A DNA stretch of 64,000 nucleotides, from positions 256,001-320,000 of the forward strand of contig CAVRZA010000011.1 in NCBI GenBank assembly GCA_963725665.1, read 5' to 3'. The stretch is from an uncultured Actinomycetes bacterium. GTDB lineage: Bacteria; Actinomycetota; Thermoleophilia; UBA2241. The notes beneath the pieces are model-generated. The model searched no databases and had not been told where the DNA came from. It worked only from the letters and a program-made list of their open reading frames with translations. Positions 4,369 to 31,606 of the stretch are shown piece after piece. A program made the translations under genes and the position numbers. How positions within the stretch are numbered: position 1 is the stretch's first letter; each line of letters starts with the position of its first letter.

Positions 4369-5715
4369 TCATCGGCAGCGCCTGTCATCGACCCGGTGGC
4401 AGGCCGTCTTGCCGTCTCCGCTGGTCATCCTGGGCAGCGACATCGGCTCCGCCAGCTCGATACGCGGGGTGACGCCGATGGTCCCCTTCGTCGCCTTGGC
4501 AAGCTTCTGCGAGAGCTTCTCCCGCGCCTCTTCGTCCAGCTCGCTGAGCTCGCAGATCTCCACTTGAAGAGTGAGCTGGTCGCGGTTCATCGAGGTCTCG
4601 AGGACCATGCAGAAGTTGTTGCCGACCTTGTCGAACTGCGCCAGGACCTCCTCGATCTGGCTCGGGAACACGACGTACGCGCCGATCGACAGGGCCTCGT
4701 CACTCCGACCGGTGATCTTGCCTATTCTTGGATGCGAGCGGCCGCAGGCACACGGGCTCCACGTTAGCGACGACAGGTCGTGGCTGCGAAAGCGGATCAT
4801 CGCCATGGAATCGCTCGAGAGAGAGGTCCAGACGAGCTCGCCCGGCGCGCCGTCATCCACCCATTCGCCCGTCGCGCGATCGATGCACTCCACCAGGAAG
4901 GAGTCTGACCACACGTGCATGCCGTCCCTCTCCGGGCACTCACAGGCCATGCCGGGCCCCAGGAACTCGCCCATGCCGAACTCGTTGAAGGCCTCAACGC
5001 CCAGGCACGATTCGAGCCGTCGGCGCCCTGACTCGGGCCAGGGCTCGGCGCCGAACAAGCCCACCCGCAGGCTCGAGTCCCTGGCGAGATCGACGCCGCG
5101 CTCGCGCGCCCTGTCTGCGAGGTAGAGCCCGTAGGAGGGCGTCGTGACGATGGCGGTGACACCCAGGTCGACGATCAGGTCGATCTGCAGCTCGTACCGG
5201 CCGATGCCGGCAGGGACCACGCCGACGCCCATCTTCTGGGCGCCGTAGTGGAATCCGATCCCGGTGGCCAGCCCGTACGAGAAGCAGTTCTGGAGAAGGT
5301 CTCCCGGACGCAAGCCGACCATCCACAGCGAGCGCGCGTTCAGCGAGGCCCACTCGTCCATGTCGTGCCGCGTGGCGAAGATGGGGATGGGCTTGCCGGT
5401 GGTCCCCGACGTGGTGTGCACCTCGAGGACCTCGTTCCGCTCGCACGTCATCAGGCCGTGGGGATACGCCTCGCGGGCGGTCTGCTTCTCGAGGAAGGGC
5501 AACTTGCGCACATCCTCGAGCGCCGTGATGTGCCGGGGCTCGACGCCCGCTGCGCGGCACAGGTCCCGGTAGGCGGCGCTGCGCTCGTACGCCGTGGAGA
5601 CTCTGCTCTTGAGTCGCTCCAACTGCAGCTCCCGGAGCGCGCGAACGTCGAGCGTCTCAGCCCGCAAATCGAAGTAGGTCCGCAGCTCCTCGGTGTTGCC
5701 GATCGCCTGTCTCAT
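4369..5715 (-). CDS. paaK: Phenylacetate-CoA ligase family (aryl-acid CoA ligase)
   Basis: TSGTTGKP AMP-binding loop, TTPSY, GLFGAEPW, PCACGR, GRSD; directly downstream of iorAB. Confidence 0.85.
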   Translation of the reverse strand: MRQAIGNTEELRTYFDLRAETLDVRALRELQLERLKSRVSTAYERSAAYRDLCRAAGVEPRHITALEDVRKLPFLEKQTAREAYPHGLMTCERNEVLEVHTTSGTTGKPIPIFATRHDMDEWASLNARSLWMVGLRPGDLLQNCFSYGLATGIGFHYGAQKMGVGVVPAGIGRYELQIDLIVDLGVTAIVTTPSYGLYLADRARERGVDLARDSSLRVGLFGAEPWPESGRRRLESCLGVEAFNEFGMGEFLGPGMACECPERDGMHVWSDSFLVECIDRATGEWVDDGAPGELVWTSLSSDSMAMIRFRSHDLSSLTWSPCACGRSHPRIGKITGRSDEALSIGAYVVFPSQIEEVLAQFDKVGNNFCMVLETSMNRDQLTLQVEICELSELDEEAREKLSQKLAKATKGTIGVTPRIELAEPMSLPRMTSGDGKTACHRVDDRRCR

Positions 5716-5748
5716 ACGAATCCCCGATCCCCTACGGTACTCATCCGA

Positions 5749-6357
5749 TCAGACACGTGCGGGTGCGGGCGGGAGCCCTGACCGCCGCCCCACCGCGAAC
5801 GCCGCCAGGTTGACCTGCAGCCAGTCCGTGTTCACCGAGTTCTCGATCGCCCGTCGCCATGCCTCGTCTGCGAAGGTCAAGTGGTTGGCGAGCACGCCCA
5901 AGAGCACGACCCCTGCCACCTTGCCGCTCCCGGCCTCCTCGCCGAGCCTGTTGCCGTCCACCGCGATCAGGCGGTAGCTCTGACCGCGCATCCGTTCGAG
6001 CGCGGCGTCGGGGTAGGAGTGTGTGCCCGTCGCGGCTATCGGGGGGACGATCCTCTCGGTGTTGACGATGGCCACGCCATCGTCGGCGACGGAAGGAGCC
6101 CAGCGCAGCCCTTCCGCGATCTCGAACGCGAGGAGATAGTCGACCTCTCCCGGGGTGATGGCCGGAGCGATCACCCTCGTGCCGATCCTGACGTGCGCCT
6201 GCACGCTGCCGCCGCGCTGCGACATCCCGTGCGTCTCGCTCTCCTTGACTTCGAGACCCCCGTGAAGAAGCGCCGCCTCGGCGACGATCGTGGCGGCCAG
6301 TATGACGCCTTGGCCCCCGACACCGACGATCAGGATGTCCGCGTGTCCGTCGCCCAT
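5749..6357 (-). CDS. iorB: Indolepyruvate:ferredoxin oxidoreductase beta subunit
   Basis: GVGGQG and ETHGMSQRGGSV motifs; start overlaps the iorA stop. Confidence 0.9.
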   Translation of the reverse strand: MGDGHADILIVGVGGQGVILAATIVAEAALLHGGLEVKESETHGMSQRGGSVQAHVRIGTRVIAPAITPGEVDYLLAFEIAEGLRWAPSVADDGVAIVNTERIVPPIAATGTHSYPDAALERMRGQSYRLIAVDGNRLGEEAGSGKVAGVVLLGVLANHLTFADEAWRRAIENSVNTDWLQVNLAAFAVGRRSGLPPAPARV

Positions 6358-8138
6358 CACGCCCTCGCCTTCGAGATCGCCTGAGGCCGGCAGACCTGAG
6401 CGCATATCGAGCAACCCGTGCACGCACTGGCGTCGATGGCGATCTTGTGCCGGTTCTTCACCATGGAGTCGGTCCAATGGAGGGCGGGGCAGGCGAGCTT
6501 CATGCACTGCTGGCAGGCGGTGCAGGCCTCCTCGTCCACCTCGTAGACCTCGTCGGCCCTTACCTTGCGCGGGAACAGGACGCACGGCCGGTTGGTGATG
6601 ACGACCGAGGGTCCCTCGAAGTCCAGAGCGGCCCTCAGAGCGGCCGTGCAGGCGTCGAGATCATACGGATCGACGGTCTGGACGCTCTTCACGCCGAGCG
6701 CCCGGCACAGCGCCGGCAAGTCGACGGGGGGTGTCTCGACGCCCGAGAGGTTGCGCTCGGAGCCGGGGTGCGTCTGCCCTCCGGTCATGGCCGTGATGTT
6801 GTTGTCCTGGATCAGGAGGGTCACGTTCGTCTTCTGATGGACGGCGTTGAGCAGACCCGAGACACCTGAGTGGAAGAAGGTCGAGTCCCCGATCACAGCG
6901 ATGGAGCCTTTCTCGTAGCCCCCCGCCCGCCCGACCCCCTGCGCCATGCCGATGCTGGCGCCCATGGCGACGACGGTGTGCATGGCCGACATGGGCGGCA
7001 GACAACACGAGTCGTAGCAGCCGATGTCACCGTTCACGTAGAGGCCGAGACGCTTGATGGCCGTCACCATGCCGCGGTGCGGGCAGCCGGCGCAGAAGAT
7101 CGGCGGCCGCGGGATGACGCTCGTGTCGCGCGCGACGCGAGGCTTCTGCCACCGCGGCAGAGCGACACCGGCCTCGTCGAGGCCACGGCCGACGACCTGT
7201 GGAGTCAGCTTCCCCTGCGCTGGGAAGAACGCCTTTCCTTCGACGGCGATGCCGTCGGCGAGGATCTGCTCCTCGAGGAAAGGCTCAAGCTCCTCCACCA
7301 CGAAGAGGCGTTCGACTTGCTGCGCGAACCGCCGAACGGCGCCGATCGGGAGCGGGTTCACAAGACCGAGCTTGAGGAAAGCGGCGTCCGGCACGGCCTC
7401 CTTGGCGGCGAGGTAGGCCGCCCCGGAGGTGATGATGCCGAGTCTCTCGAGATCGCCTACGCCCGGCTCCACCCGGGCGAGGGGGGGTCCCTCGGCATAC
7501 TCGCACAGGCGGGCCAGCCTCGCGGCCAACCCGCGATGAAGCTCCCGCGAGAACACCGGGACCAGGCAGTACTTGGCGGCGTTCTTCTCGAGGTCCTTGC
7601 GCTCACGCTCGACGCGCTCGCCGAGCTCGACCAGGGATTTCGAGTGCGCGATGTCGGTCGTCACGCGCACCATCACCGGGATGTCGTAGGTCTCGCTGAG
7701 CTCGAGCGCGATGCCGACGAAGTCCTTGCATTCCTGGCTGTCTGAGGGTTCGAGTATCGGGATGCCTGCGAGCCGGCCGAAGTAGCGATCGTCCTGCTCG
7801 GTCGACGAGCTGTCCATGCCCGGGTCGCTGCCGCAGACGACCACTAGGCCGCCGTTCACTCCCGTATACACGGAGCTGATCATGGGATCGGCGGCCACGT
7901 TGACGCCGGGGCTCTTCATCGCGGTCAGGGCCCGCACGCCGCCGACCGCGGCGCCGAAGGCCACTTCGTAGGCCACCGCCTCGTTGGTGGACCACTCCGC
8001 GTACACCGGGTCGTAACGAGCGATGTTCTCAAGGATCTCGCTGCTGGGGGTGCCCGGGTAGGCAGCCGCGACCCGCACCCCGTGTTCGTAGGCTCCGCGC
8101 GCGATGGCCTCGTTGCCGAGCATGAGCCGCCTCGTCAT
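6357..8138 (-). CDS. iorA: Indolepyruvate:ferredoxin oxidoreductase alpha subunit
   Basis: GNEAIARGA, YPGTPSSEI, PRPPIFCAGCPH, GDIGCY, GDSTFFHSG, TAMTGGQ, C-terminal 2x[4Fe-4S] motifs. Confidence 0.93.
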   Translation of the reverse strand: MTRRLMLGNEAIARGAYEHGVRVAAAYPGTPSSEILENIARYDPVYAEWSTNEAVAYEVAFGAAVGGVRALTAMKSPGVNVAADPMISSVYTGVNGGLVVVCGSDPGMDSSSTEQDDRYFGRLAGIPILEPSDSQECKDFVGIALELSETYDIPVMVRVTTDIAHSKSLVELGERVERERKDLEKNAAKYCLVPVFSRELHRGLAARLARLCEYAEGPPLARVEPGVGDLERLGIITSGAAYLAAKEAVPDAAFLKLGLVNPLPIGAVRRFAQQVERLFVVEELEPFLEEQILADGIAVEGKAFFPAQGKLTPQVVGRGLDEAGVALPRWQKPRVARDTSVIPRPPIFCAGCPHRGMVTAIKRLGLYVNGDIGCYDSCCLPPMSAMHTVVAMGASIGMAQGVGRAGGYEKGSIAVIGDSTFFHSGVSGLLNAVHQKTNVTLLIQDNNITAMTGGQTHPGSERNLSGVETPPVDLPALCRALGVKSVQTVDPYDLDACTAALRAALDFEGPSVVITNRPCVLFPRKVRADEVYEVDEEACTACQQCMKLACPALHWTDSMVKNRHKIAIDASACTGCSICAQVCRPQAISKARA

Positions 8139-8383
8139 GGCCTCATCTCACCGTGCCCCTCCACCAGACAGCAAGCCGACTCCATTATCATCCAGGATAC
8201 CGGACGGGCTTCTTCACGGCACGCATTGTGTGAACGGACTCAAAGGCCTGCGTCACGGTCCTCGGCGTCGGTCACGGCGCCCAGTGCGGGTGTCGCCTGC
8301 CAAAGAACGGGGTGTCCCTCCCACGCGCATGGTGCGTTCTCTGTCGCTTGACGTATCACGCCCTCACCAGAAAGATGTGCACC

Positions 8384-9091
8384 ATGGGCGAACAGACACC
8401 ACCTAGAACGGGAGCGAACCACGCGGTCGCTCCGGACGTACCTCTGGGGGCACTGGGCGGTGTCCTACGCCGGGCGCGTGAAGCCGCTGGCATCGGCGTA
8501 CGGGAGATGGCCAGCAGACTGGGCTGCTCCCCCAGCCACGTCTCCCAGGTCGAGCGCGGCGTGACGAGCCCCTCAGTGCACACGCTCTTCAGCATGGTCA
8601 GAGAGCTGGGCGTGTCGCTCGACGACTTGCTGGTCGCGGCGTCGGCGGACATGGTACCTCCGAGCACGGGGGAGATCGGACCGTGGCCGGGGCGCATCGT
8701 CCGTTCTGCCGACCGCCGTTGCATCGCGCTGCCCGGCGGTGTCAAGTGGGAGATGCTCATCCCCGCCGTCGAGGAAGGCTTTGAGTTCGTCGAGTACGTC
8801 TACGAGGTCGGCGGTCGCGACGGCGACGATTTCTTCAGACGAAACGGTTGGGAGTACGGCCTGGTACTCGAGGGACGGCTGAAGGGCGCCATTGGTTTCG
8901 CGGAGTTCGTTCTCGAAGCTGGTGACTCGATCGCCTTCGACTCCAGCGCCCCGCACCGCTTCTCCAACGCGGGCGATATCCCGGCTCGGGCTGTCTGGGT
9001 CTGGCACAGCCCGGCCATCGCGGGCGACAAGCCCGCCCAGGCCCTCGATGCTCGACGGGCCCACAACGAGCCCGACCGCAACGAGCCGTGA
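8384..9091 (+). CDS. XRE-family HTH plus cupin transcriptional regulator
   Basis: HTH (LRRARE...SQVERG...PS), cupin (E...VLEG...L.AGDSIAFDSSAPHRF). Confidence 0.88.
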   Translation: MGEQTPPRTGANHAVAPDVPLGALGGVLRRAREAAGIGVREMASRLGCSPSHVSQVERGVTSPSVHTLFSMVRELGVSLDDLLVAASADMVPPSTGEIGPWPGRIVRSADRRCIALPGGVKWEMLIPAVEEGFEFVEYVYEVGGRDGDDFFRRNGWEYGLVLEGRLKGAIGFAEFVLEAGDSIAFDSSAPHRFSNAGDIPARAVWVWHSPAIAGDKPAQALDARRAHNEPDRNEP

Positions 9092-9299: not shown

Positions 9300-9938
9300 G
9301 TGAGTTTCTTCACCGAAATGAAGGATGCGGTGGTCAGGGGGGACAGCCAGGCGTGCATCGACCTGGCGACAAAAGCCGTCGAGTCCGGCGTCGATCCCCA
9401 GCAGGCCATCCAGGAGGGGTTCGCCCCGGGTATGGAGGTCGTGGGCCGGGGGTTTGAAGAAGGAAGCCTGTTCCTCCCCGACATGATACTCGCAGCCGAG
9501 GCTATGACAGCCGGAGTGAGCGTCCTCGAGGCGGCGATGCCCGCGAACGAACTCGAGGGAAGGCGAAAGGCGAAGGCCGTCGTCGCCACCGTCCAGGGCG
9601 ACGTGCACGACATCGGCAAGAACATCCTGCGCATCGTGCTGTCGACGTCCGGCTTCGACGTGGTGGACCTCGGCCGCGATGTGAAGGTGGCGACCATCAT
9701 CGCGCGGGCGAGGGAGGAGCGGGCAGACATCATCGGCGCATCGGCCTTGATGACGACGACGATGATGTACATGAAGGAGCTGCTCGAGGAGCTCTCCGAG
9801 GCGGGGATCCGCGAGGAGTTCAAGGTCATGGTGGGTGGCGCGCCGGTCACTGACGCCTGGGCGCGGGAGATCGGCGCCGACGGGTACGCCAAGGACGCCT
9901 TCGCCGCGGTCCAGCTGGCCAAGCAGCTGGTGAAGTGA
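9300..9938 (+). CDS. Methyltransferase cognate corrinoid protein (MtmC/MttC-like)
   Basis: Cap domain (GMEVVG..FE...FLPDM), DVHDIGKN B12 motif, SALMTTT, VMVGGAPV. Confidence 0.93.
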   Translation: MSFFTEMKDAVVRGDSQACIDLATKAVESGVDPQQAIQEGFAPGMEVVGRGFEEGSLFLPDMILAAEAMTAGVSVLEAAMPANELEGRRKAKAVVATVQGDVHDIGKNILRIVLSTSGFDVVDLGRDVKVATIIARAREERADIIGASALMTTTMMYMKELLEELSEAGIREEFKVMVGGAPVTDAWAREIGADGYAKDAFAAVQLAKQLVK

Positions 9939-10037
9939 CGCGGCCGTTTCGGCCGTTGATGCGACGACCGGATGTCCACGCCGCGCGCGCTGAGGCGGGC
10001 ACCATCCGGCATCAGCACTGATGGGAGGAGCAACGAA

Positions 10038-11420
10038 GTGATCACCTTCTGGGACGTAGTGGAGCGCTGCGACCGCGGCGAGCGCATGTCGGAGTCCGAC
10101 TTCGACAGGATGCTGTGGGAGAACGTGCGAGCGCTGACCGAGAAGTACGACATCCACTTCGACGGTGAAACGCCCGTGCCGAGCGACGACGGCCTGGCCG
10201 ACAGGGCCTATCAGGCAGCCCTGGAGCTGTTCCTGGCCACCGGCTTCTACTGCACGAGCACACAGCGGGCGGTGCGATTCTCGCGTGAGGAGGTCGAGGA
10301 GGCCGTCCGGCACGCCAAGACGTCCTACACGTTTGGAGAGGGGCGAGACCAGCACACCATGCGACCGCGGGTCGTCGAGGACGAGCGGCCGCCGACCTGC
10401 ATCTTCTCGGGCCTGGGCGTACCAGTCGACGAGGCGGTGTTCCCGAAGGTCTGCCAGGCGATCGCGGCGGAGCCGTTGGCCGACGCCTTCTGCTGCGTGT
10501 CACTGCACGACACCTTCCGCGGCATCCCTATCAAGTCGGGACATCCCATCGAGGTGGCCGCGTGCATGTGGGACGTCACCAAGCGCCGCGAGGCAGCCCG
10601 ACTGGCTGGACGGCCGGGCCTGGGCCTCTACGCGATGGTGTCCGTCGGCGAGAGCACAGCTTCGATCATCGCCGCGTCGCACCCGGCGTTCGGAGCGTTG
10701 CCGAGAGACGTGCCGCAGGTCGGCGCCATCGCCGAGCTGAAGGTCGATTACGAGCGGATGAACAAGGTCGCCTTCGAACGCGAGTGCGGGATCGGGCTCG
10801 CCGGGCTCTACGGGCCGCTCATGGGCGGGTACGCCGGCGGTCCCGAAGGGACGATGCTCGTCCAGATAGCCCACTTCTTCCTCGGCCTGCTCGCCTACAA
10901 CGTCGAGTACCACATCTGCTTCCCGATCGACATCAATCAGACGTGCAGCACGACGGTGCCGCTGCTGTGGCTCGTCAGCGTGTACTGCCAGGCGATCGCC
11001 CGCAACTCGAGGATGCTCAACATCTGCACCACCATGGCGGCCGGCGGCCCGTCGAGCGAGATGCTCTTCTACGAGATGGCCGCCGGCGCCATCGCGCACA
11101 CGGTCTCTGGGGCGAACCACGTCCAGGGCGGGATAGCGCGCGACAAGTACCCCGAACGGGTGTCGACGCTGGAGCTGAGGCTCGGCGCCGAGACGGCGCA
11201 CGCGGTCGCGGCCATGAGGATGACCCGCGCGCAGGCAAACGACGTGGTGAAGGAGCTCGCCAGCCGCTACGTGGCCGACATTCCCAGGGCGCCCCTCGGC
11301 AAGACCTTCACGGAGCTCTACGACCTGGAGCGTGTCAGGCCGCTGGACGAGTACATCGATGTCTATCGGAAGATGAAGAAGAAGGTGTCCGAGGCCGGGG
11401 TCGACTACTCCGTTCTCTAG
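10038..11420 (+). CDS. mtmB: Monomethylamine:corrinoid methyltransferase (MtmB) family, pyrrolysine-free
   Basis: MtmB-like motifs GFYCTSTQR, GEGRD, AGRPGLG, ELKVD, GGYAGG, GKTF.E.YD; no internal TAG; SD GGAGGAG before GTG 10038. Confidence 0.85.
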   Translation: MITFWDVVERCDRGERMSESDFDRMLWENVRALTEKYDIHFDGETPVPSDDGLADRAYQAALELFLATGFYCTSTQRAVRFSREEVEEAVRHAKTSYTFGEGRDQHTMRPRVVEDERPPTCIFSGLGVPVDEAVFPKVCQAIAAEPLADAFCCVSLHDTFRGIPIKSGHPIEVAACMWDVTKRREAARLAGRPGLGLYAMVSVGESTASIIAASHPAFGALPRDVPQVGAIAELKVDYERMNKVAFERECGIGLAGLYGPLMGGYAGGPEGTMLVQIAHFFLGLLAYNVEYHICFPIDINQTCSTTVPLLWLVSVYCQAIARNSRMLNICTTMAAGGPSSEMLFYEMAAGAIAHTVSGANHVQGGIARDKYPERVSTLELRLGAETAHAVAAMRMTRAQANDVVKELASRYVADIPRAPLGKTFTELYDLERVRPLDEYIDVYRKMKKKVSEAGVDYSVL

Positions 11421-11485: not shown

Positions 11486-12856
11486 ATGAGCACCATGACG
11501 GACGCACTGACGCTGGATCATCTCATCGACGACGCCCACCTCGAAAGGACGCGCGAGCTGTTCGCCAAGTGCCAGGAGGTCGTCTCGGGCGGCGAGAGCA
11601 GCTACGCGCGACTGATCGGCACGCGTCCGATCGTGATGGAACGCGGCGAAGGAGCCCGCTTCTACGACGTCGACGGCAACGCCTACATCGACTGGTGTCT
11701 CGGCTACGGACCGATGATCTTCGGGCACCGGCCCAAGCCCATCCTCGATGCGATCATCGCGCAGATCACCTCGGGCGGGATGCTCTACACGTTCCCGCAC
11801 GAGCTCGACTACGAGGTGGGCAGCAAGATCGTGCAGACCGTGCCCGGCATCGACCAGGTCCGCTTCGCCAACTCCGGCAGCGAAGCCACACAGGCGGCCA
11901 TCCGTCTGGCTCGCGCCTATACCGGCAAGGACAAGATCCTCAAGTGGGAAGGTAGCTACAACGGCTTCCTCGACTGCCACGCCTTCTCGCACATGCCGGC
12001 GCTCGAGGCCGCGAGCACGGAACGTTTCCCCCGCACGCTGCCGTCGATGGCTGGCATCCCAAGAGCCGTCGAGGAGACCGTGATCGTCGGTTGCTTCAAC
12101 GACCTCGACAGCGCCGAGGAACTCATCAGAAGGAACGCGGGCGAGCTGGCCGCTGTGCTCAGCGAGCCCATCCTCGCAGACGCCGGCATCATTCCACCGG
12201 AGCCGGGCTTTCTCGAGGGGTTGCGTCGCCTTTGCGACGAATACGGGGTCCTGCTCATCTTCGACGAAATCATAACGGGCTTCCGCGTGGCGCTCGGGGG
12301 CGCCCAGGAGCTGTACGGCGTCACCCCCGACATCACGTGTGTAGCCAAGGCGGTCGGCGGGGGCACACCCGGGGCGGCAGCCTTCGGGGGTCGCAAGGAC
12401 ATCATGGAGCTCGAAGCCGAGGGTGTGGTGCTGCACGGCGGCACCTACAGCGGCAACCCCATGACCCTGGCGGGGATGAACGCCGCGCTCGACATCCTCA
12501 TCAACGATCGCGAGCGCGTGTACGGGCACCTCAACGCGATCGCCGATGCTATGGTCAAGGGCATGCGCGGCATCTTCGCCGAGCTCGGTGTGCCCGCCTA
12601 CATCGGTCAGGTCGGGCCGATGTGGCAGGTGTTCTTCGGGCACGAGGCCCCAGTCACCCGCTATCGCCAAGCCCGGGCCAGCGACACCGACTTCTTCAGC
12701 CACCTTCAGACCGAGTGCCAAGCGCGCGGCGTGTACTTCCACAACTTCAACTTCGAGCGCTTCTTCGCCAGCACCGCGCACACGATGGCCGAGGTCGACC
12801 GCAGTCTGGAGGTGATCGAGACGGCGACCAAGGCCGTCAACACGCGCAGCGGTTGA
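11486..12856 (+). CDS. Class III PLP aminotransferase (GSA-aminomutase-like)
   Basis: DVDGNAYID, NSGSEAT, IFDEIITGFR, AKAVGGG, GTYSGNP; SD AAGGAG. Confidence 0.9.
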   Translation: MSTMTDALTLDHLIDDAHLERTRELFAKCQEVVSGGESSYARLIGTRPIVMERGEGARFYDVDGNAYIDWCLGYGPMIFGHRPKPILDAIIAQITSGGMLYTFPHELDYEVGSKIVQTVPGIDQVRFANSGSEATQAAIRLARAYTGKDKILKWEGSYNGFLDCHAFSHMPALEAASTERFPRTLPSMAGIPRAVEETVIVGCFNDLDSAEELIRRNAGELAAVLSEPILADAGIIPPEPGFLEGLRRLCDEYGVLLIFDEIITGFRVALGGAQELYGVTPDITCVAKAVGGGTPGAAAFGGRKDIMELEAEGVVLHGGTYSGNPMTLAGMNAALDILINDRERVYGHLNAIADAMVKGMRGIFAELGVPAYIGQVGPMWQVFFGHEAPVTRYRQARASDTDFFSHLQTECQARGVYFHNFNFERFFASTAHTMAEVDRSLEVIETATKAVNTRSG

Positions 12857-12999
12857 GACGAAAGCGGCATTACGGCGTGGGCCAGCTTCGAGACTGTGTC
12901 TGGCGCACGCCGCGACCCGCCCCAACGACCGCGATACATGTCGTCGCACAGCCTCAGAGCCAGCACCCCGCTACACCTGCGACCCGGATGGTGAGTGCC

Positions 13000-13668
13000 A
13001 TGCCACAGCTGTTCACACTGCACGAGCAAAGCGAGACGCACATCAAACTGCAGAGGCAGATCCAGGAAGTGGACATCACGGTCGACGTGTCGACTGCCTT
13101 CGACCCGCATCTCGGCCCGCACACGACCATCGACTTCCTCGACCACCTCGTCGCCACCCTGGCCTGGGGCCTCTGCATGTCGGTGGGCTGCACGGTCGCC
13201 GAAGGGCGATGGCGCTCGACCCACACGATAGCTGAGGACGCTGGGCAGACCATCGGAGCGGCGCTCAAGAGCTTCTTCTATCGCAGGATGGTCGCGGAGG
13301 GCATCAACGGCTGCGGCTCGGCCGTCTTTGGCCTCGACGAAGCCTTGGCGAGGGCGATGGTGGGCGTAGAGGGCAGACGGAACTCGTTCATCACTGTGGC
13401 CGCTGACTGCCCCGGTGGCCGCCTCGAGTCCGTCGAGGACATGCGATCGGCCGACTGCGTCGCTTTCGTCGAGGGCTTCGCCCAAGGCTTCCCGGCCACC
13501 GTCCACCTGGACCTGCTCACTGGTCGGGACCCGCACCACGTCTGGGAATCGGCGTTCATGGCCTTGGGCGAAGCCCTGCGGATGGCTTTCCAGACCAATC
13601 CCTGGAGGATCGCGAAGAACAACCCCTACTACGCCGACGAGGGCCTCGCCGACGCGTCGCTCGCATAG
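13000..13668 (+). CDS. Divergent imidazoleglycerol-phosphate dehydratase (HisB)-like protein
   Basis: FLDHL, THTIAEDAG, G...LDEAL, DPHHVWESAF match the IGPD fold, but the first metal motif and the FK lysine are altered. Confidence 0.7.
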   Translation: MPQLFTLHEQSETHIKLQRQIQEVDITVDVSTAFDPHLGPHTTIDFLDHLVATLAWGLCMSVGCTVAEGRWRSTHTIAEDAGQTIGAALKSFFYRRMVAEGINGCGSAVFGLDEALARAMVGVEGRRNSFITVAADCPGGRLESVEDMRSADCVAFVEGFAQGFPATVHLDLLTGRDPHHVWESAFMALGEALRMAFQTNPWRIAKNNPYYADEGLADASLA

Positions 13669-13693: not shown

Positions 13694-14800
13694 TCAGACC
13701 GCCGCCTGCAACACGCCTTCCAGCGTCTCGATCAGACGCGCGTTCTGTGCCGCATCACCGACCGTGATGCGCAGGAACTCGGGCAGGTCGTAGCCGTCGC
13801 ACGGCCGCACGATTATCCCTCTGGCGAGTAGCGCCTGCGCGATCCTCTCCGCCTCGGGTCCGATTCTGACCAGGAGGAAGTTGGTGTGGCTCTCGACATA
13901 GCGCAGGCCCATGCGGTCGAACTCGCGGTACAGGTATCGTCGTCCAGCGGCGTTCAACGCGATCGAGCGCTGGACGTACTCCGCGTCCTGCAACGCTGCC
14001 GCCCCCGCCGCCTGCGCCAGGATGTTGACGGCAAAGGGCTCCTTGATCTTGTTCAGCGGCGCGAGCACGTCGGGGTCGGCGATCGCGTAACCCAAGCGGA
14101 CGCCGGCCAGTCCGTAGACCTTCGAGTAGGTGCGCATGACCATCACGTTCTTGCGCCCGGCGTGCACGTACTCCGTGGTCTTCGGGTAGTCGGGTGAGTC
14201 CACGAACTCGTAGTACGCTTCGTCGAAGATGACGAGCACGTCCTCGGGCACCGCCCCCATGAACGCCTCCACTTCGCTCCCCGTCACCACGGTGCCGGTT
14301 GGGTTGTTCGGGTTGCAGACGAAGATCAGCTTCGTCCTCGGCGTGATCGCCGCCCGCATCGCATCGAGGTCAAGCCGGTAGTCCCTGAGCGGCGTCTTGA
14401 TCAGCCGAGCACGCATCGCCGTCGCGAAGACGTCGTACACGGGGAAGGACGAGCGGCTGACGATGACCTCGTCGTCCTGGTCGAGATACGCCATGCAGGT
14501 CTGCATGATCAACCCGTCCGCGCCGTTGCCCACCGCGATCTGCTCCGGCTTGAATCCGAGGTGTGCCGCCAAGGCATGGCGAAGGTAATAGCACTCGCCG
14601 TCAGGGTAGGAGTTCAACTGCGGCAAGGCTGCTTGCATCGCCGCCACGGCCTTGGGCGCCGGTGGCATCGGATTCTCGTTGGAGGCCAGCTTGATGACGT
14701 CGCCGAGACCGAGCTCCCGCTGCACCTCTTCGACCGGTCGACCGGGCACGTAGGCCGCGATGTCGGCCAACGCCGACTGCGGCCTGACCAGCCTCACCAT
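13694..14800 (-). CDS. hisC: Histidinol-phosphate / aromatic aminotransferase
   Basis: IKLASNENP, YPD, CNPNNPTG, DEAYYEF, RTYSKVYGLAGVRLGY. Confidence 0.9.
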   Translation of the reverse strand: MVRLVRPQSALADIAAYVPGRPVEEVQRELGLGDVIKLASNENPMPPAPKAVAAMQAALPQLNSYPDGECYYLRHALAAHLGFKPEQIAVGNGADGLIMQTCMAYLDQDDEVIVSRSSFPVYDVFATAMRARLIKTPLRDYRLDLDAMRAAITPRTKLIFVCNPNNPTGTVVTGSEVEAFMGAVPEDVLVIFDEAYYEFVDSPDYPKTTEYVHAGRKNVMVMRTYSKVYGLAGVRLGYAIADPDVLAPLNKIKEPFAVNILAQAAGAAALQDAEYVQRSIALNAAGRRYLYREFDRMGLRYVESHTNFLLVRIGPEAERIAQALLARGIIVRPCDGYDLPEFLRITVGDAAQNARLIETLEGVLQAAV

Positions 14801-15071: not shown

Positions 15072-16703
15072 TCACTCAGGCGGCAACTCGCCGTACGTCA
15101 TGGAGAGGTCCACGCCGACGGAGCGGCTGCGCGCTTTCCAGATGTAGTACCAGATGACGCCCAGCACCCAGACGCCGACGAACAGGTAGATCGATTCCGT
15201 GGTGAACTGGCGGGCGGCCTCGTTGAAGATGAACACGTAGAGCAGGATGAGCAGGTAGGCGATGTCGACCAGCGCCCCCCACACGATCACGGGCAGACCG
15301 AGGAAGCTCCACTTCTGGTAGGGCGAGGAGTCCCAGATGCCGCGCGCCCGCTTCATGTAGGGGAAGAGCAGGGCGGCGAACGCCGTGGGCAGGAAGACCG
15401 AGGTGACCTGCAGCCCCGTGACCACGACGTTCTGCATCACGGCGAAGCTGGAGAACGAGTAGATCACCAGGAGGATCTGGCTCAGCCCGAGGCAGAGGAT
15501 GTGGTTCTTCACCGGGCTGGCGAAGCGTGGGTTGATGTCGGTGAACCACTTGGGCCCCATGCGGTCCATGCCCCAGGCGAAGAGGATGCGCGGGAAGGCC
15601 AGATAGGAGAGCGCTAGCCACCACAGCGTGAAGCCGATGTAGGAGAGCGCCATCCACGCGGCCAGCACCTTGCCGAAAGCGCCGAGCGCCGCCGAGCTCG
15701 CCCCGAGGCAGTAGACGCCGAGCGAGATGAAGTCGCTCGCGAACGGCATGTTGTAGGTGTCGATGGCGCCGTTGTTGTCCATCCACGAGGCCGCCTGAAT
15801 GAACTGGTAGCCGGTCGTCTTGTTGACCACGATTGCGGTCCAGAACATGAAGATGAAGGGCACCACGATGGCGAACACGTTGGCCCAGATGATGGTCTTG
15901 TCGGGGCGCTTGACCTCGCCGGCGATGAACGAGATCGAGTAGGCGTAGGCGAACAGCCAGCTCATGACGACCATGGTGCCGAATGTCGCCCCCCAGCTCC
16001 AGCTGGTGGGCATGGCCTGCCCGGCCGCGTCACCGATCTGCTTGATGAACTCCGCGTAGCGCGGCGACTGCGTGGCGTCGGCGGCAGCGTTCCAGTTGGC
16101 GATGAAGGTGGCCTTGCTGGTGAAGGTGAACACCAGGGCGATGACGACGGCGCCGCCGATCGAGAAGAACATCACGAACTTCTGCGTGATGGCGAAGATC
16201 CGGATGCCGAAGACGACGAACAGGAAGCCCACGAAGTTGAAGAGGCTGGCGACCACGAAGATCAGCCAATTGCTGTTGGCGAGCTTGTCGGCCGCGCTCG
16301 TCCAGCCGATGTAGCTGAACATCACGGAGAGGCCCGTGTTGGCGATGAGCGGCGCCAGCACGTAGAGCCACATCAGCCAGATGACGGCGTCGCCGAAGCT
16401 CTGCGCGATGCCGAAGATGGGATGGATGATGCGCGAGTTGTAGATGTACTCGCCGCCCGAGCGCGGCATGCTGCCGCCCAGGACGCCCCAGACGATGGGG
16501 AAGCCGATACCGGCCATGATGAGCGAGATGACGGCGGCGATGACCAGGTTGCCGCCCAGAAAGACACCCAGGCCAAGCGTGAAGATCAGCCAGATGCTCG
16601 GCGTGATCCCCTGGTTCATGAAGCCGACGGCGAACGCGTCCATCATCGAGAGGCCGCGTACGAGTCCGCTGGCCTTGCGCGCGTAGGCAAACTCTTGAGG
16701 CAC
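15072..16703 (-). CDS. APC-family amino acid/amine permease
   Basis: ~12 hydrophobic segments, ARKASGLVR, MPRSGGEY, AGEVK, C-terminal ELPPE. Confidence 0.9.
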   Translation of the reverse strand: MPQEFAYARKASGLVRGLSMMDAFAVGFMNQGITPSIWLIFTLGLGVFLGGNLVIAAVISLIMAGIGFPIVWGVLGGSMPRSGGEYIYNSRIIHPIFGIAQSFGDAVIWLMWLYVLAPLIANTGLSVMFSYIGWTSAADKLANSNWLIFVVASLFNFVGFLFVVFGIRIFAITQKFVMFFSIGGAVVIALVFTFTSKATFIANWNAAADATQSPRYAEFIKQIGDAAGQAMPTSWSWGATFGTMVVMSWLFAYAYSISFIAGEVKRPDKTIIWANVFAIVVPFIFMFWTAIVVNKTTGYQFIQAASWMDNNGAIDTYNMPFASDFISLGVYCLGASSAALGAFGKVLAAWMALSYIGFTLWWLALSYLAFPRILFAWGMDRMGPKWFTDINPRFASPVKNHILCLGLSQILLVIYSFSSFAVMQNVVVTGLQVTSVFLPTAFAALLFPYMKRARGIWDSSPYQKWSFLGLPVIVWGALVDIAYLLILLYVFIFNEAARQFTTESIYLFVGVWVLGVIWYYIWKARSRSVGVDLSMTYGELPPE

Positions 16704-17068: not shown

Positions 17069-17902
17069 CTAGGCGCTCGTGTACCGCCCCAGCCGCAGGA
17101 TCTGCCGCGCCTCGTCGGGGGTGGCCGGCTCGCGGTTCCACTCGCGGGCCAGACGCACTACGCGCTCGACCAGCCGCGCGTTGCTCTCGGCGAGCACCTT
17201 CCTATGCAGGAAGATGTTGTCCTCGAACCCGAGACGCACGTTGCCGCCCAGGGCGAGGGCCGTCATCGTCACCGGCATATGCCAGCGCCCGATGCCCGTG
17301 CAGGTCCAGGTCGAGCCCTCCTTGGGTATCGAGTCGACGAGGAACATCAGGTTGCGCGGCTCTCCGCTCATCGAGCCCGGCACGCCGAGCACGAAGTCCC
17401 AGTGCAGCAGGGGGCCGGCCGGGCCCAGCCTCTCGACCAGCCGCAGCGCGTTGTCGATCTGTCCGGCCTCGAAGATCTCGAACTCGGGACGTACGCCGGC
17501 CGCCCGCTCGCGCTCATAGAACTCGCTCATGAGCGCCTGGTCGTTGAAGAAGACCTCGTCGCCGAAGTTGGCCGTGCCCGTCGTCAGCGAGGCCATCTCG
17601 GGCCTTAGTTCAAGCGGCTGCAAGCGCTCATCGGCCGTCATGCCCATGGCCCCGCCCGTCGAGGCCTGGATGATGATGTCGGTGCGCTTGCGGATCTCCG
17701 CGATGGCGGTGGCGAACACCTCGCGGTCCTGTGTGGGCGTGCCGTCGGGGCGCCGCACGTGCAGGTGGTACATCGCGGCGCCGGCCTCGCGGCAACGCGC
17801 CGCGTCGACGCCGATCTCCTCCGCAGTCACGGGGAGGTTGGGCTGCGCCTGCTTGGTCGTCTCGGCCCCCACGCCGGCGACCGTGATGATCAGGTCCCCC
17901 AT
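17069..17902 (-). CDS. kce: 3-keto-5-aminohexanoate cleavage enzyme (BKACE/DUF849)
   Basis: LIITVA..GAE.TK..PNLP, HLHVR, STGG, PEMASL, GGNVRLGFEDN. Confidence 0.88.
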   Translation of the reverse strand: MGDLIITVAGVGAETTKQAQPNLPVTAEEIGVDAARCREAGAAMYHLHVRRPDGTPTQDREVFATAIAEIRKRTDIIIQASTGGAMGMTADERLQPLELRPEMASLTTGTANFGDEVFFNDQALMSEFYERERAAGVRPEFEIFEAGQIDNALRLVERLGPAGPLLHWDFVLGVPGSMSGEPRNLMFLVDSIPKEGSTWTCTGIGRWHMPVTMTALALGGNVRLGFEDNIFLHRKVLAESNARLVERVVRLAREWNREPATPDEARQILRLGRYTSA

Positions 17903-17937
17903 GGCTTCTCCTTTGCGCGAAATGGCCGACGCGATTG

Positions 17938-19208: not shown

Positions 19209-19540
19209 AAGACTCCTTTCCGCGAGGCGATCGGATTGCTCGTGGCGCCCCGCCTCATCCACCTTGCGCTGGCTAGTGGCGCCCACTCCCGCGGCCGCGC
19301 GGAGCGGGTGGCGCCAGGCCTGTCTCTGGGAGGCCGCAGGGCCGTCGCCGGTCGCCGGGATCGCGGCCGTGCGGCAGGTTGGACTCTACCTCATTTCACC
19401 GAGCGGTGTCTGCCGTCGTGGCCACAGCACCGGCACCCAGCCTGCAGCCGGTGCGCCAATCTGGCCATGCGTGCGCGCTCTTACCTCCATCGCTCTATGG
19501 ACCATCGCCGCCGCGGGCGCCCCCCAAGATGCACTTGGGC

Positions 19541-20494: not shown

Positions 20495-21492
20495 GGCGGC
20501 ATCCCCTGGCCGGCGACGCCCGAAAGGAGGGGGCGCGCAGAGGCGCCTTCCTCGACCGCCGGCGTGGGCTCGGGTGCCCCGAAAACGATGATGAGCACTC
20601 CCGCGGCGATGATGAGGGCGCCGCCGGCGACGGTCCACGCCGAGGGACGTTGTCCGAGGAACACCAGTGCGAAGAGGGGCGCGCTCACAGGCTCGATGTA
20701 GCCCATGATCGAGGCGTGCTGCACCTTGACGTAGTGCATGCCGTCGAGGAACAAGCTAAACGACAGGGCCGTCATGACGAGACCCAGCAGGGCGGCCAGG
20801 AGCAGGTTGCGGGCCGTGAAATCGGCTGCCGGCGTCCGCCACAGCCCGAACGGCACCAGCACGACCGCCGTCACCACGCAGAGGGAGAAGACGATGCTGG
20901 TGCTGTGCAGGCCGCGGCGTCGCAGCTGCTTGGTCTGGAGCAGGTAGAGCGCGTAGAAGACGCCGGCGGCGAGGCCGGCGGCGAGGCCCCCGGCCGAGAG
21001 GCGGGCGCCGTCGCCGGCGAGCCCGGGCACGAGGATCAGCGCCATCCCGCCGACGGCCGCCGCCAGGGCGCCGTACACGACGCCCTCGGTGCGGCCGCCC
21101 TCGAAGCGGGGTCCCAGGAAGGCGACGTACACCGGCGCTAGATACGAGGTGAAGATGGCCACCGCCACCCCAGTCTCGCGTATGGCGACGAAGTAGAGCG
21201 AGAGGTTGGCGGCCAGCGTCAGCCCAGCGAGCAGCAGCCGCAGCGCGACACGCCGATCGCCGATCGAGGGCCAGTCGTGGCGCAGCGCGACGACGAGGCC
21301 GAGGGCGGCGGCGGCGAACACCATGCGCAAGCCGACGAGCATGACGACCGGCATCGTCGCCCACGTCACGACGACGCCGATGGCGCCGTTGATCAGCGCT
21401 CCCGTTCCCACCTCTGAGAAGCCGCGCAGACGGTGACCCCCCGGCCGTCCTCGCGATCTCAAGCGGGACCCCGTCGCGCCGCCATCCGTCAC
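20491..21492 (-). CDS. DMT/EamA family transporter
   Basis: ~10 TM segments, ASIMGYIEPV, GGALIIAAG. Confidence 0.85.
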   Translation of the reverse strand: MTDGGATGSRLRSRGRPGGHRLRGFSEVGTGALINGAIGVVVTWATMPVVMLVGLRMVFAAAALGLVVALRHDWPSIGDRRVALRLLLAGLTLAANLSLYFVAIRETGVAVAIFTSYLAPVYVAFLGPRFEGGRTEGVVYGALAAAVGGMALILVPGLAGDGARLSAGGLAAGLAAGVFYALYLLQTKQLRRRGLHSTSIVFSLCVVTAVVLVPFGLWRTPAADFTARNLLLAALLGLVMTALSFSLFLDGMHYVKVQHASIMGYIEPVSAPLFALVFLGQRPSAWTVAGGALIIAAGVLIIVFGAPEPTPAVEEGASARPLLSGVAGQGMPP

Positions 21493-23270
21493 GCGAAGGT
21501 CAGCGCCTGCGTGAACACCTCGTGGAACTTGGCGTGCGTCGCCAGCTCGAGGAAGGCGATGCGCCGGCGAAGCTCGGCGATGCGCTCGCGCTGACGCGTA
21601 TCGACGAGGGCCATCTGCGCCCCGACACCGGCCGCGTTGCCGACGAACGCGACACGCGACTTGGGCACCGGAGGCAGCAGGTCGATGGCGAGGGCGTTCT
21701 CGAGGTCGAGGTAGTTGCCGAAGGCCCCCGCGACGTAGACGTGGCGCAGGTCGTCGGGCGTCAGACCCTCGTGCTCGAGCAGCAGCGTCCAGCCGGCGCC
21801 GATGGCACCCTTGGCGAGCTGCAGGTTGCGCACGTCGTGCTGCGTGAACACGATCTCCCCGTGGGCTCCGTCGGTGAGCACGTACTCGAGCCCGTCGTCA
21901 GCCTCGCGCACGCGCTCGTGATCCGAGAGCATGCGCCCGCTCTTGTCGACGATGCCGCGCGCCACAAGGCCGGCGAGGATGTCGACCACACCCGAGCCGC
22001 AGATGCCGACCGGAGTCACGCCGCCGATCGTGCCGATGGCCGTGGGCATTCCTTCGGCGTCGAAGCTCACACGCTCGATGGCGCCCTCGGCCGCCTTCAT
22101 GCCACACTTCATCTGGTAGCCCTCGAAGGCGGGGCCCGAAGCGCAGCTCGTCGCGACAAGACGTCCCTCGTGCACGAGCACGATCTCGGTGTTCGTGCCG
22201 ATGTCGATCGCCGCGGCCGGCTCGCGTTTCGCTTCGAGGTGCGTCGCGGCGATCACCGCCAGACAGTCGGAGCCAACGAAGCCGGCGATGGGCGGCAAGA
22301 AGTAGACGCCGCCCTCGGGGTTCATGTCTATGCCGAGCTCGGCGGCGCGCAGGAGGAGCGGCCGATCGACGGCGGGCGCGAAAGGCGCGCCACCGAGGCC
22401 GACCGGAGAGATGCCCAGAGCCAGATGGTGCATCGCCGTGTTGCCCACGACGGTCATGTCGTAGACGTGGCGCGCCTCGATCCCCTGGCGCGCGTACAGG
22501 CTCGCGAGAGTCTCGTCGATCCCCTCGCGCGCCGCCCGCGCCAGGTCGCCGAGGCGCCCCTCGCGCATGGCCATGGTGATGCGCGTGATGACGTCTTCGC
22601 CGAAGCGCATCTGCGGATTCTCGACCGCCTCCTGGTCGACCTGGGCCCCGGCCGTCAGGTCGAACAGGTAGGTGATGATCTTCGAGGTGCCGATGTCGAC
22701 GGCGGCGCCGTAGACGTGCGGCGCGGCGCCGTCGGGCTCGACGTCGATCAGTGTGTCGCCGTAGCGTGTGACGACCGCCTCCCAGTCGCTCTCGCGCAAC
22801 GTGTCCGGGAGCGTGCGCAGCACCGTCAGCGGCACCTGACTTACACCGAGCTGCGTGCACAGGCGTTCGTCGTCGGAGGCCGCCGAGCCGAGCTCGGGCG
22901 GCGTCAGGCGCACGGCCTCCCTGACGACCGCCGAGCGCACCTCGCCGTGGTGCAGCCGGGAGGTCGTAAGGATCTGACGCCGCCCCTTCGCTTCACGCAC
23001 CTCGACGCTGACACGCTCACCACGCGCATACGCCTGGCAGGCGAGACGCCAACCTTCAGCGAGCAGCTTGGGCGAGAGGCGCTTGGCCTCCTCCTCGGTG
23101 GGAGAGCTGAGGTCGCCGGCGCCCAGCCGGACGAGGCACTTGCCGCAGGTGCCGCGGCCGCCGCAGGTCGCCGGCACCTCGATGCCGACCTTCGTGACGG
23201 CCGCCAGCAGGGGCTCGTCGGCGTCGAGCTCGACGGTGACGCCGATGGGCTCGATGAAGACCTTCGTCAC
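21489..23270 (-). CDS. Reductive activator of corrinoid enzymes (RACE/RamA-like, ASKHA/DUF4445 with N-terminal [2Fe-2S])
   Basis: CGGRGTCGKC...RLACQ, DIGTS, NPQ..FG.DVITR, DIGTNTE, GPAFEG, GICGSG, AGAFG, GNAA. Confidence 0.92.
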   Translation of the reverse strand: MTKVFIEPIGVTVELDADEPLLAAVTKVGIEVPATCGGRGTCGKCLVRLGAGDLSSPTEEEAKRLSPKLLAEGWRLACQAYARGERVSVEVREAKGRRQILTTSRLHHGEVRSAVVREAVRLTPPELGSAASDDERLCTQLGVSQVPLTVLRTLPDTLRESDWEAVVTRYGDTLIDVEPDGAAPHVYGAAVDIGTSKIITYLFDLTAGAQVDQEAVENPQMRFGEDVITRITMAMREGRLGDLARAAREGIDETLASLYARQGIEARHVYDMTVVGNTAMHHLALGISPVGLGGAPFAPAVDRPLLLRAAELGIDMNPEGGVYFLPPIAGFVGSDCLAVIAATHLEAKREPAAAIDIGTNTEIVLVHEGRLVATSCASGPAFEGYQMKCGMKAAEGAIERVSFDAEGMPTAIGTIGGVTPVGICGSGVVDILAGLVARGIVDKSGRMLSDHERVREADDGLEYVLTDGAHGEIVFTQHDVRNLQLAKGAIGAGWTLLLEHEGLTPDDLRHVYVAGAFGNYLDLENALAIDLLPPVPKSRVAFVGNAAGVGAQMALVDTRQRERIAELRRRIAFLELATHAKFHEVFTQALTFA

Positions 23271-23309
23271 GGCGTCGCCGCTGTCGCCGCGACCCTCGTC
23301 ACCGCAGTC

Positions 23310-24608: not shown

Positions 24609-24745
24609 GTCGTCGTCTCCTATCTCGCGGGAGCCTCGCCCTCGGCTCCGCTGCCCTGGCCCGAATCTCTCTCATACGAGGCGTGCCGGCGTAAGAAGTG
24701 GGTCAGCACGCAGAGGTCGTCAGGGGCCGCGAAGGCCCTTTGGGG

Positions 24746-29050: not shown

Positions 29051-29085
29051 CGGCCGGGCGGGGGCGGGCGCGCCGCCGCCGTGAG

Positions 29086-31559: not shown

Positions 31560-31606
31560 TGTCCCGACGACGCAGCCGCACGCGGGCCGCGTGCGCGCCT
31601 CGACGC

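Follow-up and report, generated by a model that had tools for sequence, protein, structure and literature searches.

The gene considered here is the open reading frame (ORF) at 13000-13668, on the plus strand, of a window of 64,000 nucleotides, i.e. positions 256,001 to 320,000 of contig CAVRZA010000011.1 in assembly GCA_963725665.1, from an uncultured Actinomycetes bacterium (Thermoleophilia; UBA2241); coordinates below refer to this window unless another contig or locus is named. It encodes, without a stop, a protein of 222 amino acids (P0001) that has the fold of imidazoleglycerol-phosphate dehydratase (IGPD, HisB; EC 4.2.1.19), but that differs from canonical HisB in its active site and stands in a catabolic-looking context rather than in a his operon. 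P0001 belongs to a separate branch of the family, termed clade A below, and what is new about it is a known fold with a remodelled site in new contexts. The genes and features at the locus are the following.

4369..8138, minus strand: arylpyruvate module (NCBIfam), consisting of IorA (6357-8138), IorB (within 5749-6585) and a PaaK-like CoA ligase (4369-5715)
8312..9091, plus strand: regulator with an XRE-type helix-turn-helix (HTH_31/HTH_3) and a cupin domain (Cupin_2), ahead of the operon; its true start is probably later than 8312
9300..9938, plus strand: cognate corrinoid protein (PF02310 105 bits, PF02607 79 bits; TIGR02370 224.1 bits, cut-off 215.3)
9972..11420, plus strand: non-pyrrolysine MtmB-family methyltransferase (PF05369 298 bits; ORF without in-frame stop)
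11486..12856, plus strand: class-III (glutamate-1-semialdehyde-aminomutase-like) aminotransferase, directly upstream of the IGPD-like gene (PF00202 211.8 bits; NF000818 399 bits, cut-off 398)
13000..13668, plus strand: non-canonical IGPD-like protein of clade A (PF00475 81.1 bits; model confidence 90.5; fold matches in the PDB)
13694..14800, minus strand: hisC-family (class I/II) aminotransferase (TIGR01141 342.6 bits, cut-off 276.55)
15072..16703, minus strand: APC-family amino-acid/organocation permease (PF13520 49 bits)
21489..23270, minus strand: RACo/RamA-type corrinoid reductive activase (PF14574, PF17651, Fer2, RACo_linker)

The window has a G+C content of about 66-72% and holds many long spurious ORFs, and the reading frame of P0001 is open already from 12091; since the homologues share the N-terminus MAxLFTLHE, the ATG at 13000 is the likely start. 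P0001 matches the IGPD profile PF00475 over all of its positions (1-144 of 144) with 81.1 bits (E 1.1e-22; gathering cut-off 27 bits), which is far beyond chance. The original prediction, made from the letters of the window, had noted the motifs of the IGPD fold, and these are indeed present, including the two divergent ones that it quoted (STHTIAED at residues 73-80 and DPHHVWESAFM at residues 177-187). The order of genes that it had read (corrinoid protein, MtmB family, aminotransferase, IGPD-like gene) was borne out by a Pfam scan, and none of hisG, hisD, hisH, hisA or hisF was seen among the window ORFs scanned. What it overlooked is the hisC-family gene, which is convergent with the IGPD-like gene, lies 26 bp downstream of it and is the best hisC match of the whole genome. 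A gap of 143 bp (12857-12999) parts the class-III aminotransferase gene from the IGPD-like gene on the same strand; no terminator-like site was found in this gap and its surroundings, where the promoter/terminator scan and Rfam gave no match at all.

P0001 is not the HisB of this genome (3.73 Mb, 12 contigs, 97.5% complete). PF00475 has two matches in it, and the other one, on contig 4, is a canonical hisB (208.9 bits) that comes straight after hisD and has hisA downstream of it, so that the IGPD-like gene is a paralogue. P0001 falls below the cut-off of each of the 13 NCBIfam HisB models (best: NF002114, 79.7 bits versus 189), and its identity to canonical HisB is 24-32%. Together with the loss of key residues described below, this gives good support to the earlier proposal of a repurposed protein that is no longer HisB. 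A canonical-level IGPD match also accompanies the clade-A gene in 6 of the 10 other clade-A genomes searched; of the remaining four, one (G004) has a partial match, two small metagenome-assembled genomes (MAGs) hold the clade-A copy alone, and a Hadarchaeum MAG has two low-scoring copies.

The active site was compared in an alignment of 52 rows (9 from clade A, 23 other non-canonical ones, called 'mid' here, and 20 canonical ones), using the residue numbering of A. thaliana IGPD2. In the available text of PMC4509728, from which the residue roles are taken, Mn1 is bound by His47, His169, Glu173 and His74, Mn2 by His73, Glu77, His145 and His170, and the phosphate group by Gln51, His55, Lys177 and Arg99, with Glu21 and Glu173 as the putative catalytic residues. 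Eight residues (Glu21, His47, His73, Glu77, Arg121, His169, His170 and Glu173) are conserved in all 52 rows, the catalytic pair Glu21/Glu173 being Glu23 and Glu183 of P0001. His74, on the other hand, is found in all 20 canonical rows versus none of the 32 non-canonical ones (Thr in 8 of 9 clade-A rows; Thr76 in P0001), and the same holds for Arg99 (20/20 versus 0/32; Gly104 in P0001). Lys177 is likewise invariant among the canonical rows (20/20), and is replaced by Arg in 21 of the 23 'mid' rows and by Met, Thr, His or Arg in clade A (Met187 in P0001). His55, present in 15 of 20 canonical rows, has become Gly in 8 of 9 clade-A rows (Gly57 in P0001), and the Gln51 position, where P0001 has Thr, is variable in canonical rows too. 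The His145 column, which is less reliable, contains no His in any of the 32 non-canonical rows (gap or Ala in P0001). P0001 therefore has six of the eight Mn ligands of HisB rather than all eight, and of the phosphate site His55, Arg99 and Lys177 are all replaced. Clade A has its own invariant residues as well (Trp56, Asn103, Glu124, Asn128, Glu143, Glu146, Gln162 and Trp182), and a conserved C-terminal extension of 20 residues, NPWRxAxxNPYYxxEGxADASL, which sets it apart from HisB. Since the catalytic core and three ligands per metal are kept while the phosphate pocket is gone, these residues suggest that the enzyme is still active but takes another substrate, one without phosphate.

The predicted structure agrees with the assignment of the fold. 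The AlphaFold model of P0001 has a mean predicted local distance difference test score (pLDDT) of 90.5 and a predicted template-modelling score of 0.89, with values below 50 only at residues 215-222. All 29 Foldseek matches in the PDB with E <= 0.001 are IGPD (template-modelling score to the target up to 0.91), and a search of the ESM Atlas gave IGPD-family clusters only. When three copies of P0001 were predicted together, an IGPD-like trimer interface resulted with an ipSAE of 0.93, versus 0.00 for the best of three controls, with a contact agreement between runs of at least 94% and a partner pLDDT of at least 89. Of the solved one-chain pairs 20 of 30 reach the calibration mark, as against 1 of 23 for the solved single chains, and because IGPD oligomers have already been solved, the pass may reflect mere likeness to them. 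The confident part of the predicted interface takes in the clade-specific residues 56 and 59 as well as residues 200-209 of the C-terminal extension.

A word-indexed search returned 110 other clusters (at 90% identity) with 48-81% identity to P0001, nearly all of 214-223 amino acids, after which the next matches fall to 31-32% identity and 63-64 bits. These clusters make up clade A, and P0001 shares all of its traits (about 222 amino acids, H-T at the HH motif, Trp56-Gly57, DxHHxWE, and the NPW...NPYY..EG extension). In 18 members 42 columns are invariant, which was counted as purifying selection. The sources are diverse, including Thermoleophilia, Lachnospiraceae, Coprococcus, Huintestinicola, Peptococcaceae, Coprothermobacterota, Spirochaetota, Thermodesulfobacteriota and Hadarchaeum MAGs, and Ca. 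Formimonas warabiya (Peptococcaceae) has two copies. Members are annotated in their source records as imidazoleglycerol-phosphate dehydratase or as hypothetical protein. Searched with a profile, 1.84 billion representatives yielded 2483 matches at E <= 1e-3, 754 at E <= 1e-10 (canonical enzymes included) and 27 at E <= 1e-30, the best ones beyond clade A being further non-canonical IGPD-like proteins. Among 40 relatives (24 of the same family and 16 of the same class) the clade-A gene was found in none at E <= 1e-30, so that it seems to be an accessory gene of patchy distribution.

A phylogeny of the 32 non-canonical and 20 canonical rows (maximum likelihood, quick search, with support from the Shimodaira-Hasegawa-like approximate likelihood ratio test, SH-aLRT) places P0001 outside canonical HisB, as the original prediction would have it: the two sets of rows are split by a branch of length 1.23 with a support of 100. 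Clade A, with P0001 inside it, is monophyletic (SH-aLRT 98) within the larger non-canonical group. The 'mid' proteins of that group (P0115-P0151, the second copies in loci L017 and L020, and the HisD-IGPD-like fusions P0118 and P0127) resemble clade A in having lost His74 and Arg99, in lacking His in the His145 column, in keeping six metal ligands and in their association with HisD-like dehydrogenases. They differ from it in that Arg takes the place of both His55 and Lys177 and in being without the C-terminal extension, Trp56 and Gly57, and clade A forms a branch separate from them. Fusions with non-canonical IGPD-like domains were seen in P0118, P0127, P0143, P0146, P0149, P0136 and P0139, and are of three types, i.e. 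HisD plus an IGPD-like domain (651-661 amino acids), a HAD hydrolase plus two IGPD-like domains (633-644 amino acids), and tandem IGPD-like domains (about 390-450 amino acids).

The gene neighbourhoods of 56 clade-A loci (numbered L, from genomes and metagenome contigs) were compared by tblastn with 46 query proteins; the near-duplicates L108 and L115 had been dropped beforehand, but some redundancy remains (L106, for example, resembles L012). A locus was taken as informative if one of its sides extended over 1 kb or more (n = 48), whereas the count of hut genes uses the 37 loci with a flank of at least 3 kb. In 23 of the 48 loci an alcohol-dehydrogenase-type gene lies within 400 bp of the clade-A gene, which may be a Tdh/IolM-like zinc-dependent alcohol dehydrogenase (Zn-ADH), a GldA-like glycerol dehydrogenase (370 bits, cut-off 336), a HisD-like protein or an SDR.

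Genes of the hut type occur in 7 of the 37 loci. True urocanase (TIGR01228, 957-966 bits versus a cut-off of 375) is encoded beside or near the clade-A gene in the Thermoleophilia loci L005, L006, L098 and L100, and is directly adjacent in L006 and L100, the latter reading, on one strand, CMD, IGPD-like, HutU, HisD-like. The members from gut Clostridia (Coprococcus, Lachnospiraceae, Huintestinicola) stand in operons with HutI, with neither histidase nor urocanase in view. In Coprococcus (L010) the order is M20 amidohydrolase, HutF-like, HutI, HisD-like, IGPD-like, SsuA-type binding protein, SDR and Zn-ADH, and in Huintestinicola (L016) it is IorAB, ADP-forming acyl-CoA synthetase, two D-2-hydroxyacid dehydrogenases and a thiamine-pyrophosphate enzyme, followed by IGPD-like, M20, HutF-like, HutI and HutD; HutI scores 441 and 452 bits in these two loci (cut-off 298). 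L007 reads HisD-like, IGPD-like, HutD. With urocanase, HutI, HutD, HisD-like and hisC-family genes thus lying beside clade members, the imidazole-binding part of the original prediction has gained indirect support.

HisD-like genes adjoin the clade-A gene in L007, L009, L010, L017 and L020. In their products the Zn ligands and the catalytic Glu-His pair are retained, and so is Glu414*, which hydrogen-bonds the imidazole of histidinol in HisD (available passages of PMC5585171). At the motif position that reads GSAPL in HisD and GRY[A/S]H in HpsN (as far as given in the accessible part of PMC11382572), they have GRYPL or GKGSF. In the Bacillota loci L017 (1442-4105) and L020 (8001-10610) the order is clade-A IGPD-like, HisD-like, 'mid' IGPD-like, SDR and Zn-ADH, and two different IGPD-like proteins flanking one HisD-like protein may form hetero-oligomers. 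The own genome has a second HisD-like gene at C6:42427-43714 (minus strand), seemingly split over two frames, which is 44% identical to the HisD-like protein of L009 and so closer to the clade-A-associated HisD-like proteins than canonical HisD, for which the figure is 35%. In the Thermoleophilia loci L003 (about 7485-7946), L006, L094, L100 and L101 the clade-A gene is immediately preceded, on its own strand, by a small gene of the CMD/AhpD family (PF02627), which is absent from the window.

Other genes of the window recur near clade-A genes as well: regulators similar to the one at 8312..9091 adjoin them in L015 and L103, a homologue of the permease lies directly upstream in L004, and Ior genes are near in L013 and L016. 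In the window IorA (TIGR03336, 635 bits) is just below its cut-off of 650.9, the IorB models give about 209 bits, and PaaK (373 bits) is below its cut-off. Three other interpretations of the neighbours were considered. Neighbouring ornithine-carbamoyltransferase-type and amidohydrolase genes had raised the option of ureido or creatinine catabolism, which was dropped, since NCBIfam identifies them as housekeeping pyrB (361 versus 237) and pyrC (303 versus 279); the pyrC-like gene of L100 is hydantoinase-like, but below the cut-off (346 versus 393). Sulfonate catabolism (of 2,3-dihydroxypropane-1-sulfonate), considered because of the SsuA-type binding proteins and because the HisD-like partners resemble HisD and HpsN equally, was not adopted, as the partners lack His126 of HpsN. 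The models for ergothioneine utilisation (ErtD, ErtE, thiourocanate hydratase) are matched by neighbours only below their cut-offs.

The original prediction had also placed the gene in a methyltransferase operon. The gene order of the window agrees with this, but such an arrangement is a minority one in the family, in which dehydrogenase neighbours are far commoner: the METHYLTRANSFERASE link, i.e. MtmB-like and corrinoid genes within 8 kb of the clade-A gene, was found in four loci only (the window, L022, L032 and L038) and in metagenome near-copies (L115 and L108, with a corrinoid gene in L104). The association recurs in unrelated genomes, as the window and L022, L032 and L038 illustrate; the IGPD-like gene is frameshifted in L032. 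The comparison loci further encode a methyltetrahydrofolate:corrinoid methyltransferase and an RDH-like Fe-S protein, together with a sugar-type ABC transporter. In all of them except L032 a Zn-ADH adjoins the IGPD-like gene, and among them a class-III aminotransferase was detected only in L038 and in the related metagenome loci L104, L108 and L118. The MtmB-like protein of the window groups with its homologues from L022, L032 and L038 (SH-aLRT 99; 46-49% identity), apart from those of same-family relatives (at most 39% identity) and from its own paralogues, and no orthologue of its gene was found in the 40 relatives searched. The IGPD-like protein, however, belongs to a Thermoleophilia subgroup, with 69-78% identity to the proteins of L003-L006 versus 56-59% to those of L022 and L038, from which it follows that the pairing with MtmB arose in two IGPD-like subgroups.

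Elsewhere in the own genome, genes for HAL-family lyases lie beside MttB, corrinoid and MtmB-like genes (C4, about 213.9-222.8 kb; C11, about 230.2-233.3 kb, where the histidase-like copy is in two pieces), and HutU lies beside a corrinoid-protein gene (C1, about 189.0-191.4 kb). Such pairings of hut-type and methylamine-methyltransferase genes fit a metabolism of N-methylated histidine derivatives, e.g. of the hercynine type, as circumstantial evidence. In two relatives (G021:C25:6300-7676 and G042:C12:54598-55965) MtmB homologues have a single in-frame TAG, as is the case for pyrrolysine MtmB, and the window copy has none.

Taken as a whole, the residues and the neighbourhoods suggest that clade A consists of metal-dependent lyases or dehydratases acting on a non-phosphorylated imidazole compound, in the window perhaps as part of a route in which an N-methylated imidazole amine or amino acid is demethylated and transaminated. 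The probability of this reading is put at roughly one half. P0001 would be an active, oligomeric enzyme that depends on metal and has kept the IGPD fold, but has ceased to be an imidazoleglycerol-phosphate dehydratase. Its dimetal site may bind the ring of the substrate, after which an elimination or hydration in the side chain would take place, with loss of water or of an amine. The product, presumably of the urocanate or imidazole-pyruvate type, could then be handed on, with urocanase/HutI, arylpyruvate oxidoreductase or a neighbouring NAD(P)-dependent dehydrogenase as the next enzyme. In the window the enzyme would be coupled to the corrinoid-dependent, non-pyrrolysine MtmB methyltransferase and the aminotransferases, and it is on this coupling that the idea of an N-methylated imidazole amine or amino acid being catabolised is based.

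A bolder version of this reading is doubtful, namely that clade A is a new class of dimetal lyases which use the metal-bound imidazole as an electron sink and eliminate water or (methyl)amine from non-phosphorylated histidine-derived compounds, in a corrinoid-linked pathway in the present case. Candidate substrates would be imidazole lactate, imidazole glycerate and N-alpha-methylated histidines such as hercynine, from which urocanate or imidazole pyruvate could be formed without histidase. In this organism the enzyme might then be part of an undescribed anaerobic, corrinoid-dependent route for N-methylated histidine derivatives. Together with the HisD-like and hisC-like paralogues it could even make up a catabolic counterpart to the late steps of histidine biosynthesis that works without phosphate, in soil Thermoleophilia as well as in gut Clostridia.

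Several observations weigh against an imidazole lyase. With one ligand fewer at each metal, the geometry in which the imidazole bridges the metals could be altered or lost altogether. The His145 column aligns poorly and has His in only 9 of 20 canonical rows. The locus sets, as mentioned, are only partly de-duplicated. The dehydrogenase partner is often accompanied by sugar-type ABC transporters with no hut gene in view, and such contexts suit a polyol or amino-alcohol substrate equally well. In the window itself no hut gene lies next to the IGPD-like gene, the hutU, hutH and hutI of the genome being on other contigs, and the pyrB/pyrC neighbours in Thermoleophilia and Spirochaetota loci represent conserved proximity that is unrelated to function. 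Since L022, L032 and L038 are near-identical, the co-occurrence with MtmB-like genes amounts to only two independent lineages. Finally, no hisC lies between hisD and hisB in the contig-4 his operon, so that the hisC-family neighbour may simply be the housekeeping copy.

The main rival is somewhat unlikely, though more probable than the other alternatives. It holds that the enzyme is a dehydratase or lyase for a substrate without imidazole (a polyol, amino alcohol, aminocyclitol or sugar acid), which works in tandem with the NAD(P)-dependent alcohol dehydrogenase encoded next to it, the freed metal sites chelating a hydroxyl or carboxylate group instead. The His ligand lost at each metal site speaks for it, as do the dehydrogenase genes (Zn-ADH, GldA-like, HisD-like or SDR) within 400 bp in 23 of 48 loci, and the sugar-type (Peripla_BP_4) ABC transporters and LarA-like, GlcD/F-like, Ldh_2 and D-2-hydroxyacid dehydrogenase genes nearby. 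Tdh, GldA and HisD enzymes act on amino alcohols, which counts in its favour too. It accounts less well for the enrichment of hut-family genes and the directly adjacent urocanase in L006 and L100, and for the fact that the six remaining metal ligands and the two catalytic Glu residues never vary, while the only known chemistry of the fold, according to the available text of PMC4509728, uses an imidazole ring that bridges the metals.

An improbable alternative is that the imidazole ring rather than the side chain is hydrated. Together with the dehydrogenase, this would amount to an O2-independent hydroxylation of imidazole acetate or propionate to an imidazolone, to be opened by HutI-like enzymes. 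The operons of L010 and L016, which join the gene to HutI, HutF-like and M20 amidohydrolase genes with no hutH or hutU in view, are in line with such a route, as are the common dehydrogenase partner and the XDH-like molybdenum hydroxylase and NCS1 permease genes adjoining in L008 (with an XDH-like gene in L004 too). However, the chemistry is without known precedent in the IGPD fold, the argument is one of context alone, and the urocanase that neighbours the gene in Thermoleophilia already makes imidazolone.

A non-catalytic paralogue, i.e. a pseudoenzyme, scaffold or ligand-sensing subunit, is less probable still. Two metal ligands are lost, and in L017 and L020 the gene is paired with a second, different IGPD-like gene, so that hetero-oligomers are possible. 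Against this, both catalytic Glu residues and six metal ligands are invariant across phyla at a clade identity of 48-81%, the gene is located in operons among enzymes, and the own genome has no second IGPD-like partner, one of its two PF00475 matches being canonical hisB. A second, divergent but still functional HisB isozyme is the least credible option, as the PF00475 match above the gathering score, the adjoining hisC-family gene and the lack of a canonical-level IGPD in three of the ten other clade-A genomes (G003, G008 and G009, MAGs that may be incomplete) are outweighed by the canonical hisB of the genome, the loss of His74 and of the phosphate-binding His55, Arg99 and Lys177 with no His in the His145 column, scores far under the cut-offs of 13 of 13 NCBIfam HisB models, and the catabolic neighbourhoods.

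Two known systems help to place the imidazole lyase reading. HpsN (sulfopropanediol 3-dehydrogenase) is a HisD paralogue recruited to sulfonate catabolism in which the imidazole-binding position has been re-specified (accessible part of PMC11382572), and hence a precedent for the catabolic reuse of a fold from histidine biosynthesis, although fold and reaction are different ones. The HisD-like partners of clade A are about equally similar to HisD (255-325 bits) and to HpsN structures (264-276 bits), but are without the sulfonate-binding His126. MtqB, which acts on tetramethylammonium and choline, is the only non-pyrrolysine MtmB homologue with a demonstrated function according to the available text of a 2026 paper (PMC13044021). 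The upstream gene of the window is also of the non-pyrrolysine MtmB family with a cognate corrinoid protein, but the protein is bacterial and stands beside aminotransferases and an IGPD-like gene rather than in a methanogen coenzyme M pathway.

To our knowledge IGPD (PF00475) has been treated as a family with a single function. No description of an IGPD-like or HisB-like paralogue was found in the literature searched, which left out most subscription journals, nor was there anything relevant on a catabolic HisB paralogue, on an imidazole lactate or urocanate dehydratase, or on methylhistidine, hercynine and corrinoid. The main text of the Formimonas proteomics paper does not mention imidazoleglycerol, histidinol or DCMF_09385, and no relevant passage was found in the E. 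limosum choline paper. The present work delimits a large and conserved non-canonical IGPD branch with a remodelled active site, and because this branch is embedded in catabolic operons, an annotation as HisB misleads predictions of histidine prototrophy for these genomes. If the imidazole reading is true, the branch would mark unrecognised routes for imidazole metabolites in anaerobes, and would offer a handle on the substrate of the non-pyrrolysine MtmB methyltransferase.

The remainder of the window contains a second methylamine-type cluster on the minus strand (17069-31862), which includes a BKACE (3-keto-5-aminohexanoate cleavage family) gene, two EamA transporters, the RamA/RACo activase and lysine 2,3-aminomutase. 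It has three MttB genes, i.e. a truncated one (24746-25738, profile positions 180-493 only), a full non-pyrrolysine one (26273-27745) and a third (30204-31862), and a gene for an alanine-racemase-N-domain protein lies within it on the plus strand. This set suggests catabolism of a methylated lysine-like compound. A class-III aminotransferase at 17938-19286 (minus strand) is seemingly split over two overlapping ORFs, 18501-19286 covering positions 9-131 of PF00202 and 17938-18729 covering positions 205-335, to be explained by a frameshift (pseudogene) or else by a mistake in the assembly. Further on, dnaA, dnaN, recF, gyrB and gyrA at 38006-48158 place the origin region of chromosomal replication inside the window. 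At 55779-55887 (minus strand) there is a glycine riboswitch aptamer (Rfam RF00504, 54.9 bits), with genes for a D-2-hydroxyacid dehydrogenase, a class I/II aminotransferase and a GCV_T-domain protein just downstream of it (51715-55852, minus strand), and a tRNA lies at 59777-59849 (minus strand).

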